From Propionibacteriaceae bacterium (GTDB lineage Bacteria > Actinomycetota > Actinomycetes > Propionibacteriales > Propionibacteriaceae), in NCBI GenBank assembly GCA_009778875.1, contig WRFI01000030.1:1-14650 (forward strand): a stretch of 14,650 nt of DNA. The letters are read 5' to 3'. The position numbers and the translations under genes were made by a program. Each line of letters starts with the position of its first letter. Position 1 is the stretch's first letter. Of this stretch, positions 7,172 through 11,439 are shown piece by piece. Under the pieces are notes generated by a model. That model made no database searches. It saw only the letters and a program-made list of their open reading frames with translations, and had not been told where the DNA came from.

Positions 7172-7510
7172 ATGGCGACTTCGGATCAGGTTTATGCGGC
7201 CTGGGCAAAGGCCTGCACGTATCGGGATGACTACTGGAGGGGTGGGTATTCGCCAATGTTCCGGCGAATGAAGCTAGCCATGGAGGGTGGGGCCTGGACT
7301 TCCACCTCCACGCCCGGCACATCTGGGCGCAACCCGGCCGATCAGTTCTACGACGACTTGACGGTTCAACAGGGCCTGCTCGACGGGATGCTCAACGACG
7401 TGTGCGACACATTATGGGACCAGTACGTCCTGGTGCGCGCCCGGGAGGAGGCCGCGGCCGCCGCTGCGGCCCATCAGAGGCTTATCTCCCAGTTGAGCCA
7501 TCTGCGCTAG
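7172..7510 (+). CDS. Hypothetical small protein (112 aa), predicted helical, WRG motif near N-terminus
   Basis: ATG 7172 is preceded by the GAAGGGAG RBS with a 6-nt spacer. The track ORF starts at an upstream TTG. No recognised domain. Ala-run (EEAAAAAAAH) near the C-terminus. Low-GC3 codons unlike the neighbouring tkt. Confidence 0.5.
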   Translation: MATSDQVYAAWAKACTYRDDYWRGGYSPMFRRMKLAMEGGAWTSTSTPGTSGRNPADQFYDDLTVQQGLLDGMLNDVCDTLWDQYVLVRAREEAAAAAAAHQRLISQLSHLR

Positions 7511-7520
7511 TGAGGTTGTG

Positions 7521-9581: not shown

Positions 9582-10351
9582 CCGCGCGAAGGAGCGTGAG
9601 GGCTTCAATTGCTGCCAGTTTGGTGGCGTTGTCGCTCCTGGTGTCGGGCTGTGCGAACCGCGGGTCCGGCCAGACGTCCACGGGATTCCAGTTCATGGTT
9701 CGATCCTCTCTCGATGTGCTTAACTCAACTGCCCCCTGGTTTACGCCCGAGGTGTCTTTTGACTGTTTGACGTTGACGGCGGACGATTTGGAGGCCGTAT
9801 TGTTGCCGACGACATACTATGTGAACATTTCAGATCCGGGCGCCTGCGAGGTTTCTTTCATGGGGGACAGACAGATAACGGTCGCTGTAACCGATTCACG
9901 GTACCAGCGGGTCATGGTCAAGTCGTTGATGGAGTCTAGTTTGGGTCAGGCGTTCGTTTATCGGTTTCCGGCGTCTTTCGGCTGGGGTGGTGCCTTGTGG
10001 ACGGTCGAGGAGTTGTTGTTCGAACCCATGCCAGCCAGTCCGACTGTGGGTGGTTTGGCTTGGGCGGTGTTGTGCGCGGATGAGACGCATTGTGTGCAGG
10101 TGGTGGTGTCTTACAACATGACGATTAGCGACAACGTGAATGGTGTGCGGGATCCGTTGGGTGTGGCGGTGAGTCTGCTGGAAACGGTTTGGCGGCGGTT
10201 GTCTGTGGATCGTCCCGATTTGGTGCCGGTCCAGGTGCCGGCGGTGAATCCGGCCCCGTATCAGCCGATTACCCAGCCGATCGTGTTTGCGACCCCCACG
10301 CCAGATGTTCCCGTCTCCACCCCCGTCCCTTCAGCCACGGGGACGCCATGA
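9578..10351 (+). CDS. Lipoprotein (signal peptidase II substrate) with Pro-rich C-terminal tail
   Basis: 257 aa. N-region MTARRSVR, hydrophobic stretch SIAASLVALSLLV, lipobox VSGC. C-terminal PDLVPVQVPAVNPAPYQPITQPIV...PVPSATGTP tail. ATGA start/stop overlaps at both ends (9578-9581 and 10348-10351). Confidence 0.7.
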   Translation: MTARRSVRASIAASLVALSLLVSGCANRGSGQTSTGFQFMVRSSLDVLNSTAPWFTPEVSFDCLTLTADDLEAVLLPTTYYVNISDPGACEVSFMGDRQITVAVTDSRYQRVMVKSLMESSLGQAFVYRFPASFGWGGALWTVEELLFEPMPASPTVGGLAWAVLCADETHCVQVVVSYNMTISDNVNGVRDPLGVAVSLLETVWRRLSVDRPDLVPVQVPAVNPAPYQPITQPIVFATPTPDVPVSTPVPSATGTP

Positions 10352-11439
10352 CCGCCGTTTTCCCTCAGTCGCCACTGGGCCCGCGACCGATTCTGCCGGG
10401 GTTAGGACGGGCGCCTGTGGCAGGCAAAAGGACTGCCCCTACCCCGCGGTGGACCCCGCGACCGCCCATGACGGCCGCCCAGGTTTTGGCGACGACGCAG
10501 GCGTTCATTGCCATCGCGGACAGGAAGCAGCAGAACCCGAGCTGGACGCCCGAGCCCGGACTGGCTCGCACTGCGGGGGTGAGCATGATGGACGCCATCC
10601 GTGACGTTTTTGCGATGGCGCCGCAGGCGAGCGTTGATGGCGATGGCAATGCGTCGCTGCGCTGGCAGGAGGTGCCAGCCAATGTGTACGGAAAGGTCTG
10701 GACGAAGCCGGACGGGTTGCACCTGGGGGTTGATGGGGCGGTGCTCGGCCTGGTCATGCAGGCGATCGCGCCGGTGATGAGCGCGATTGACGTCATTCTG
10801 ATCGCCTGGTCTCACCACCTGCTGGGCTTTCTGACCTCCAGCATTCCGGCGTCTGAGCAAGCCCGGTTGGCCTTCTTTGAATCGCCCGACAACTCGGCGG
10901 CGGCCCTCGCGCTCGCCCGGGCGGCCGAGGTCCTCGATTTCATTGTCGACAACGCGGTGGAGGGGCTGAAAGTCCCGGCTGACAAGGCCCAGAGAGGTTT
11001 TCTCTGGATGGGCCTAGCCGTAATGGCGGCCAGCAACGAGGCGATAGGTGTAAGCGACATTGACCCGCGGACGATGCCGGTTGGGTTGATCGATCGCCTG
11101 CGCACTATCCGTCCATATGAGGTCGGCAAGCTGCCCCGGGACGGGCGGCTCGCCTTGTCTGCGACCTATCCGACGTTTGTGCAGGCCCTGGCCGAGCTCG
11201 GCTATTTCGACGCGGCGATCCTGCGGCAGGCTGACGAAAGGTTCCACCTGGGTTTGGGCAGTGCGTCGGCGTTCGTGCGGCCGGGCACCCCGGGCGGGCC
11301 GTTGCGGTTCGACATGACGGCGCCGGGCGCCACCGACTGGCTCTTCAAAGCCGGCATAGAGCGGACCATCGAAGGTGTGGTGGCGGAACGTCACCGGCAC
11401 CCGGGATACCCCAGCCGGGTCGCCCATTTGCCTACGTGA
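10348..11439 (+). CDS. Hypothetical 363-aa protein, paralog of the C-terminal half of the 7521..9581 product
   Basis: ATG 10348 overlaps the lipoprotein TGA. The track ORF begins further upstream (10189) in the same frame, inside the lipoprotein gene. Shares extended motifs with the large protein (AIDVILIAWSHHLLGFL vs IAVNIVVLGWSDGLCDYL; RLAFFESPDNSAAALALARAAEVLDFIVDNAVEGLKVPA vs RVTFFVQPMDNSPALLGLDHALQGLDFIIDNLKAGVPEPA; YPTFVQALAELGYFD vs YKTYVGALAQQGYFD). Confidence 0.6.
   Translation: MTAVFPQSPLGPRPILPGLGRAPVAGKRTAPTPRWTPRPPMTAAQVLATTQAFIAIADRKQQNPSWTPEPGLARTAGVSMMDAIRDVFAMAPQASVDGDGNASLRWQEVPANVYGKVWTKPDGLHLGVDGAVLGLVMQAIAPVMSAIDVILIAWSHHLLGFLTSSIPASEQARLAFFESPDNSAAALALARAAEVLDFIVDNAVEGLKVPADKAQRGFLWMGLAVMAASNEAIGVSDIDPRTMPVGLIDRLRTIRPYEVGKLPRDGRLALSATYPTFVQALAELGYFDAAILRQADERFHLGLGSASAFVRPGTPGGPLRFDMTAPGATDWLFKAGIERTIEGVVAERHRHPGYPSRVAHLPT

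Follow-up and report, generated by a model that had tools for sequence, protein, structure and literature searches.

What is encoded by four tightly packed genes that lie between two core metabolic genes of a Propionibacteriaceae bacterium? The genes are carried on a metagenome-assembled contig of 14,650 bp, which was analyzed over its complete length and is called the window below. Between the transketolase gene (tkt) and the class II fumarase gene (fumC), the plus strand carries g1 (7172–7510, 112 aa; MCL2489715.1, FWF36_03165), which encodes a small partner protein, and g2 (7521–9581, 686 aa; MCL2489716.1, FWF36_03170), which encodes a divergent DUF6571-family protein. These are followed by the lipoprotein gene g3 (9578–10351, 257 aa; MCL2489717.1) and by g4 (10348–11439, 363 aa; MCL2489718.1), whose product is a signal-less paralog of the C-terminal half of g2. 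The original prediction, made from the sequence, had compared this layout of helper, large substrate and lipoprotein with secretion-substrate and polymorphic-toxin loci. We propose, with a probability of about 0.5, that g1–g4 are a satellite effector module of an FHA-EccC-type type VII (Esx) secretion system (T7SS) of Propionibacteriales. The predicted T7SS-type layout is supported by its comparative context, since homologous modules adjoin the secretion ATPase in 10 loci and the effector–partner pairs are hypervariable. That g2 is a T7SS substrate is likely, and that it is an antagonistic toxin with a lipoprotein immunity protein falls slightly short of even odds.

DUF6571 modules beside type VII ATPases

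To place g1–g4 among known families, direct scans were performed against Pfam, NCBIfam, PADLOC and PHROGs, and these gave no match for any of the four. The prediction that none of the products could be assigned to a known family therefore stands for the direct scans. It does not stand for g2, which profile comparison places as a divergent full-length member of Pfam DUF6571 (PF20211), a family that is itself uncharacterized. This assignment is made because relatives of g2 match PF20211 and because the clade profiles align. A word-indexed search of 5.8 billion proteins yielded, among the matches listed, g2 itself and one 36%-identical paralog from the same metagenome-assembled genome (MAG), and repeating it with a 36-sequence g2 profile again gave these two among the matches listed. 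When 1.84 billion representatives were searched exhaustively with HMMER, 67 relatives were recovered, mostly of 650–760 aa; a minority of 146–390 aa match the C-terminal part only. PF20211 was matched across its 729 positions by 20 of the 36 full-length relatives (best E 2.4e-20), with scores of 69.5 bits for relative P0029 and 67 bits for P0035 at a Pfam gathering threshold of 27 bits. g2 itself gave no match to PF20211 even at E ≤ 1. By hhalign, the g2 clade (A1) and canonical DUF6571 (A4) were aligned over 616 columns with a probability of 99.95% (E 1e-37), and the A1 profile retrieved P0029 at 8e-19 and P0035 at 5.5e-16 in the exhaustive search.

DUF6571 has no assigned function and is not mentioned in the literature searched. 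A genome-collection scan with A1 gave zero relatives. A plasmid search by tblastn with a canonical DUF6571 member gave one weak match, on a Streptomyces megaplasmid, and the family is therefore not plasmid-borne as a rule. The source MAG contains at least two g2 paralogs; the full-length version of the second (P0078, 680 aa) was seen on a 24,241-bp contig in ENA.

The genomic context of these relatives was analyzed. The order of small protein, DUF6571 protein and lipoprotein recurs among them, and in 10 independent loci (L001, L003, L007, L008, L009, L024, L026, L027, L028 and L030) the module adjoins a gene for an FHA-FtsK/SpoIIIE ATPase of the EccC/EssC type. Thirteen loci offer 4 kb of context or more, and these 10 are among them; the remaining contigs are too short to score. 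Within the flank that is available, no ATPase gene is present in the window, in L004 (4.2 kb) or in L023 (5 kb). WXG100 genes are present in four of the 10 ATPase-adjacent loci (L003, L007, L008 and L030), and a Ser/Thr kinase gene is present in three.

The closest g2 homolog (33% identity, E 2e-71) lies in L003, where the genes are ordered as WXG100, Ser/Thr kinase, FHA and FtsK/SpoIIIE ATPase (~1440 aa), small protein, g2 homolog of ~700 aa, and g3 homolog. L001 has the same order without a WXG100 gene in view. The ATPase gene lies immediately upstream in L026, L027 and L028 and on the opposite strand in L024. Three canonical DUF6571 loci, from an Actinomycetota MAG, Nocardioides pocheonensis Gsoil 818 (L008) and a Marmoricola MAG, have the small gene upstream, the lipoprotein gene downstream and a gene for an FHA-type FtsK/SpoIIIE ATPase of 1311–1528 aa alongside; the WXG100 genes of the canonical loci are 47–51% identical to that of L003. 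On the 34.8-kb contig of L030, a WXG100-kinase-EssC core has a module on each side (16–15168). One of these modules encodes a small protein of 87 aa, a big protein of 755 aa, two lipoproteins of 275 and 270 aa, and a signal-less paralog of 376 aa, and its architecture is the same as that of g1-g2-g3-g4. The closest relatives and all g3-type lipoproteins are confined to a few metagenomes, one of which (IMG 3300009784) is cited in PMC7800795 as derived from the gut of a higher termite.

Beside the FHA-EccC gene, L009 (8518–11208, minus strand) and L008 (17434–20139, minus strand) also encode a membrane protein of ~900 aa with a weak LysM-like match. The two copies are 82% identical, and the protein is possibly an uncharacterized secretion-system component.

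Adjacency to the ATPase in 10 loci, spread over termite-gut Propionibacteriaceae-like bacteria, Nocardioides, Marmoricola and an Actinomycetota MAG, would also be in keeping with DUF6571 being an accessory or structural part of the T7SS, such as an adaptor, chaperone or plug that serves the FHA-EccC machine in the cytoplasm, and with the window copy being a diverged paralog. We consider this quite improbable. Two DUF6571 proteins of one sample are 26% identical while their ATPases are 90% identical, L030 carries two modules, and the source MAG holds no fewer than two copies. The copies of the window, L004 and L023 are distant from any ATPase gene, and truncated orphan copies exist. Moreover, g2 lacks transmembrane segments, and its obligate partner is an extracytoplasmic lipoprotein.

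The window itself was also inspected. All coordinates of the four plus-strand genes hold as predicted, as do the 10-nt gap between the g1 stop codon (TAG, 7508–7510) and the g2 ATG, which was read from the sequence, and the two ATGA start/stop overlaps (g2/g3 at 9578–9581 and g3/g4 at 10348–10351). The g4 stop is separated from fumC by 18 nt. All four open reading frames (ORFs) show coding-type positional GC content (GC1 > GC2 < GC3, by codon position), and for each there are independent homologs, or counterparts in the same position, at other loci; they are therefore real genes and not chance high-GC ORFs. Rfam gave nothing on the window, scans for sigma-70 promoters and terminators at the locus gave nothing exceeding shuffles, and a search for repeats flanking the module as insertion marks gave just short matches at chance level. 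An origin as a prophage or defense island was considered and dropped, with no phage or defense matches found.

The flanking genes, both outside the module, are tkt upstream (5035–7101, plus strand; Pfam Transketolase_N, E 1e-118) and the convergent fumC downstream (11458–12870, minus strand; Lyase_1, E 5e-103, and FumaraseC_C). With such core metabolic neighbors, no promoter or terminator consensus between tkt and g1, and housekeeping neighbors on one side of L023 and L028, the cluster could be a lineage-specific envelope or housekeeping operon that is co-transcribed with tkt and unrelated to T7SS, the ATPase adjacency elsewhere being coincidental. This is the least probable of the explanations considered, given the adjacency in 10 of the 13 scorable loci. 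In addition, the family is extremely rare and patchy and does not form a genus-wide housekeeping locus, with only 67 representatives among 1.84 billion proteins. The GC3 of g1–g4 (0.70–0.79) is atypical compared with tkt (0.87) and fumC (0.88), and a cytoplasmic protein of 686 aa coupled to an exported lipoprotein would have no export route under such an explanation.

A putative export signal formed by g1 and g2

The g2 protein was modeled with AlphaFold2 using a 36-sequence alignment (predicted local distance difference test score, pLDDT, 82; predicted template modeling score 0.80), and this model replaced an earlier one built from 3 sequences (pLDDT 58.6). The predicted fold is an all-alpha solenoid in which an N-terminal two-helix hairpin leads into an uninterrupted all-alpha body that includes three small beta-hairpins. 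The hairpin comprises residues 8–75 (helices 8–39 and 46–75 by the model's secondary structure; 7542–7745, plus strand) and agrees with the N-terminal helical domain expected in the original prediction. Two further expectations were borne out: g2 is rich in Ala (14.9%) and Gly (10.8%), and the large protein has no signal peptide of the Sec or Tat type. No N-terminal hydrophobic segment was found either, and hydropathy indicated no transmembrane segments.

On the basis of the model, the hairpin is a candidate secretion or partner-binding domain. When g2 was compared by tblastn with the canonical DUF6571 genes of L007–L009, only the N-terminal ~95–254 residues aligned, as in L007, where residues 1–156 of g2 align with 32% identity (E 2e-10). 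W54 and an LRRR motif are conserved in this N-terminal region. Two other DUF6571 proteins, P0033 and P0043 (L024 and L025), have a different N-terminal helical extension of ~270 residues in place of the hairpin, with a weak match to Pfam T7SS_signal (E 0.067). A 163-aa gene with a weak DUF6317 match precedes them. Because P0033 and P0043 carry this other extension, the N-terminal targeting domains of DUF6571 proteins appear to be exchangeable.

Sequence comparison places g1, on weak similarity, in a family of small proteins encoded just upstream of DUF6571 genes. Such an upstream gene of 86–114 aa (163 aa in L024) is present in every locus with a visible upstream region. The g1 start is preceded by a Shine-Dalgarno sequence (AGGGAG) 6 nt upstream of the ATG. 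g1 is homologous to the small gene that precedes the g2 homolog of L003 (BLASTP, E 3e-8) and gave a weak match, at E 0.002 in a one-sequence search, to a profile built from the small partners of canonical DUF6571 proteins; a PDB sequence search with the g1 profile gave nothing. g1 and six other partners have in common a G-A-W-x-[SG] motif in the middle of the protein and, near the C-terminus, an invariant Tyr85. The motif of g1 reads A-W-T-S and not W-x-G, and that of the canonical partners reads W-[TIV]-G-G or, more fully, A-W-[TIV]-G-G-x-S-x-D-F. In an hhalign comparison of the small partners with the true WXG100 proteins of the loci, the W motif was in register with the WXG turn, at an E value (0.016) that is not significant. 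The length of g1, 112 aa, fits the WXG100 class. These features make g1 a candidate targeting helper for g2 of the Tap, Lap or WXG100-like kind.

The cluster is described here as a candidate that may work like a T7SS effector-immunity module. In the mechanism that we propose, g1 would pack onto the hairpin of g2, and their four helices together would make up a composite signal. An EccC/EssC ATPase encoded elsewhere in the genome would recognize this signal and export g2 without Sec. The variable C-terminal part of g2 would then act outside the membrane on the envelope of a neighboring cell, either a competitor or an epibiont, and the g3 of the producer would bind and neutralize g2 at its own surface as an immunity protein. 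In this scheme, g4 may be a C-terminal module that is spare or has been displaced and on which recombination could draw.

The lipoprotein partner and the variable C-terminus

The g3 product combines a basic n-region and a hydrophobic core with the lipobox L-V-S-G-C25; the sequence MTARRSVRASIAASLVALSLLVSG-C25 conforms to the lipobox rule [LVI][ASTVI][GAS]C, and the predicted lipoprotein was thereby confirmed. Among nine aligned members of the g3 family, a signal peptide and lipobox Cys are found in seven, and the remaining two have an uncleaved-looking anchor. The nine members have four invariant Cys and an FVYxFPxSFGWGGALW motif. Because of the lipobox and the four invariant Cys, an extracytoplasmic location is assigned, and the sequences fit a disulfide-bonded extracytoplasmic lipoprotein. 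No relative of the g3 family was found in Pfam or PDB. The gene starts given by PGAP differ from those of other callers: PGAP gives 211 aa for g3, beginning past the signal peptide, and 323 aa for g4, compared with 257 and 363 aa. For g3, the 257-aa version is right and that of PGAP too short, because the conserved lipobox and signal peptide and an invariant Phe lie upstream of the PGAP start.

A g3 homolog follows the g2 homolog in the window and in L001, L003, L005/L016, L015, L019, L021, L027 and L030, and canonical DUF6571 genes also have a lipoprotein gene downstream; a gene of this kind always comes directly after the DUF6571 gene. The g3-type and canonical DUF6571-linked lipoproteins gave a weak match to each other by hhalign (E 0.0015, probability 17%). 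From this conserved pairing, g3 is probably the cognate extracytoplasmic partner of g2, acting as its immunity protein.

The C-terminal half of g2 (residues 347–686; 8559–9578, plus strand) is the more variable part of the protein and is duplicated as g4. The paralogy of g4 and g2, already noticed in the original prediction, was established by BLASTP of g4 against residues 347–686 (29% identity, E 4e-33). Two candidate starts exist for g4, at 10348 (363 aa) and at the PGAP ATG at 10468 (323 aa). The signal-less 376-aa paralog in L030 also corresponds to the C-terminal half and occupies the same position as g4, which may be regarded from its sequence as a candidate orphan or spare C-terminal module. 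Both junctions around g3 and g4 are Pro-rich, and a frameshift-split fusion of the two genes was considered; it was dropped, as g3 homologs end in the same Pro/Thr tail independently. Conservation in the g2 family peaks at residues 126–400 and is lowest past residue 400, and its invariant positions are occupied by hydrophobic residues, Gly, Ala or Trp.

Within the variable part, residues 520–575 (9078–9245, plus strand) form a Gly/Ala-rich hydrophobic helix-loop-helix according to hydropathy and the model, with helices at 520–540 and 555–574 and a low-confidence loop between them. The Kyte-Doolittle maximum of this element over 19 residues is 1.68 in g2, compared with 2.04 in the L003 homolog, 1.89 in P0018 and ~0.9 in canonical DUF6571. 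By these values, membrane insertion of the element would be a borderline case in g2 and the relatives close to it, but not in canonical DUF6571.

Variation between related loci was evaluated using L001 and L003, which come from the same sample. Their ATPases are 89.6% identical and their effectors 26% identical, and their small partners show no detectable relation. Past its own effector–lipoprotein pair, L001 (7516–11804) carries three C-terminal fragments (146, 158 and 67 aa), and behind each of them lies a lipoprotein gene. The 158-aa fragment and the C-terminus of the L003 effector share 84% identity, and the lipoprotein that comes next shares 72% identity with its L003 counterpart. The orphan fragments of L001 start at the hydrophobic element that corresponds to residues 520–575. 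By these sequence comparisons, the features used to recognize polymorphic toxins (PMC3482391), namely a variable C-terminus, orphan C-terminal and immunity cassettes, and exchange between strains, are present in L001/L003; the window's own share of them is g4 only. Tandem lipoproteins are found in L014, L022 and L030. Orphan or lipoprotein-signal-fused paralogs of the C-terminal half of g2 are found in L001, L023, L026 and L030. In L023 (649–2924, in tandem) and L026 (3124–4290), paralogs of the last ~400 residues of the effector carry a lipoprotein signal and directly follow the effector, and the site of action of this region is therefore placed outside the membrane.

Several observations weigh against the proposed effector module. 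No WXG100, EccC/EssC or other T7SS gene lies within the 14.65-kb contig. g1 has no match to the WXG100 hidden Markov model (PF06013) at E ≤ 1, and true WXG and YxxxD/E motifs are absent from it. g4 has no lipoprotein gene of its own downstream. In a mirror-tree comparison of effector C-terminus and lipoprotein identities, seven pairs gave no correlation (rho 0.24, p 0.29), a test that is uninformative because all pairs are about equally diverged. Toxin or enzyme domains were found in g2 neither by Pfam, NCBIfam, PADLOC or PDB sequence nor by fold, and thus no confident match to a well-characterized enzyme family arose. Column conservation in the g2 family reveals no catalytic-looking constellation, and the alpha-solenoid of the model suggests binding rather than catalysis. 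Finally, the lipid-anchored copies of the effector's own domain are unusual for immunity, and a simple immunity model does not account for them.

The last three of these points are shared by an explanation in which g2 leaves the cell by the same route and is a binding or recognition protein, held on the producer surface by the lipoprotein or by lipid-anchored C-terminal paralogs, with g3 as an anchor or receptor. The pair would then diversify in an arms race, for example by recognizing or blocking epibionts or phages, or by conferring self/non-self identity as with Proteus IdsD/IdsE. In addition to the lack of a conserved catalytic constellation and the lipoprotein-signal-fused paralogs directly downstream in L023 and L026, this explanation is favored by the fold. 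Foldseek of the g2 model against PDB and viral models gave no match at E ≤ 1e-3, a PDB sequence search with the g2 profile gave nothing, and the sole weak structural neighbors are ARM/HEAT protein-binding repeats. AesB, a studied Esx effector of a related system, limits an epibiont without known enzymatic activity (PMC13622651, preprint). However, the arrays of orphan C-terminal fragments with lipoproteins, together with the tandem lipoproteins, are most simply explained as retained immunity, and the hydrophobic Gly/Ala-rich hairpin in the variable part would fit membrane attack. We therefore hold a binding protein on the producer surface to be doubtful. It is likewise unlikely that DUF6571 proteins in general are non-enzymatic Esx effectors, that is, solenoid binders whose polymorphic C-terminus pairs with a lipid-anchored partner in a device for surface recognition or defense. 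If this were true, the device could, for example, be directed against epibiotic Patescibacteria or serve kin discrimination, and would not be a classical toxin-immunity pair; in Propionibacteriales, the Esr-linked FHA-EccC systems would then have DUF6571 proteins as their main cargo.

Under the preferred reading of g1–g4 as a satellite effector module, the payload belongs to a new family whose function is opaque, and the type of locus has already been described. T7SS outside mycobacteria and Firmicutes are poorly understood, few effectors are known for the Esx systems linked to FHA-EccC and kinases, and these systems were given a biological role, defense against epibionts, only in 2026. The literature searched gave no link between DUF6571 and T7SS. 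The present comparison ties this uncharacterized family to FHA-EccC systems as their most consistently adjacent cargo gene, defines its helper and lipoprotein partner, shows cassette exchange between strains and describes an effector fold without a solved relative. It also provides a concrete candidate effector family with one member in a cultivable species, N. pocheonensis, and corrects one annotated gene start (g3).

Three other regions of the window were noted. A DUF4143/AAA_14 ATPase gene (13090–14340, plus strand; GC3 0.69) lies near the module, and a 34%-identical gene adjoins the L030 module (15216–16463, minus strand); its presence near both modules may be coincidence or reflect a mobile neighbor. 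An SPFH/Band 7 gene (2255–3346, minus strand) overlaps the end of an upstream 263-aa ORF (3343–4134, minus strand), which has no match in Pfam or PHROGs and an odd positional GC content (GC1 0.83, GC3 0.71). This ORF could encode an NfeD-like partner or could have been called in the wrong frame. The isochorismatase-family ORF at 4294–5274 (minus strand) has 138 codons upstream of its Pfam domain and overlaps the start of tkt, and its true start is probably near 4860.

Comparison with known systems

Compared with the Pfam family PF20211 as described, g2 aligns over its full length, belongs to the same length class and has the same neighbors, and it differs in scoring under any reportable Pfam threshold.

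The LXG loci of the Firmicute T7SSb, which consist of an LXG toxin, Lap helpers and immunity, resemble the module in overall layout and in having a hypervariable region downstream of EssC. They also share strings of paralogous immunity-like genes, orphan toxin fragments and surface-exposed immunity for toxins that act on the envelope. TelC/TipC and TspA/TsaI are LXG examples that act on the envelope or membrane. In contrast to these loci, g2 has no match to the LXG Pfam family, and its helical element is a hairpin of ~70 residues, whereas the LXG domain has ~200. The phylum differs, and the whole of g2, not just a C-terminal cassette, belongs to one conserved family.

The Esr-linked Esx system (AesA/AesB) shares WXG100, a Ser/Thr kinase and an FHA-domain EccC with loci related to the window module. 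Linkage of FHA/kinase Esr with EccC has been reported in Actinomycetales and Propionibacteriales, and Schaalia Esx substrates encoded outside the cluster adjoin small WXG100-like hairpin genes (PMC13622651, preprint). AesB, compared by description only, ends in a disordered, Gly-rich region that contains a GYNVP motif, in contrast to the confidently predicted fold of g2 (pLDDT 82), and no lipoprotein partner is described for AesA/B (PMC13622651).

The eat loci of Mycobacterium abscessus encode the EatA toxin, the helpers TapA1/TapA2 and the immunity lipoprotein EatI, and depend on ESX-4 (PMC13444075). They differ from the window module in that EatA has a GH183 arabinanase domain, whereas g2 is one continuous alpha-solenoid without a recognizable enzyme domain. 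There are two helpers in eat and one here, the g4-type paralog is present only here, and the window module is known from sequence alone. The ATPase linked to DUF6571 modules is FHA-fused with a neighboring kinase and is not the mycobacterial ESX-4. In spite of these differences, both kinds of locus have one or more small genes upstream, for helpers in eat and for a putative helper here, a large protein that lacks a Sec signal and whose N-terminal domain is helical, and a lipoprotein gene directly downstream. Both may sit away from the secretion cluster, and payloads of 400–1000 aa whose function is unknown are common among eat-type loci, being carried by 47% of such loci in Actinomycetota (PMC13444075).

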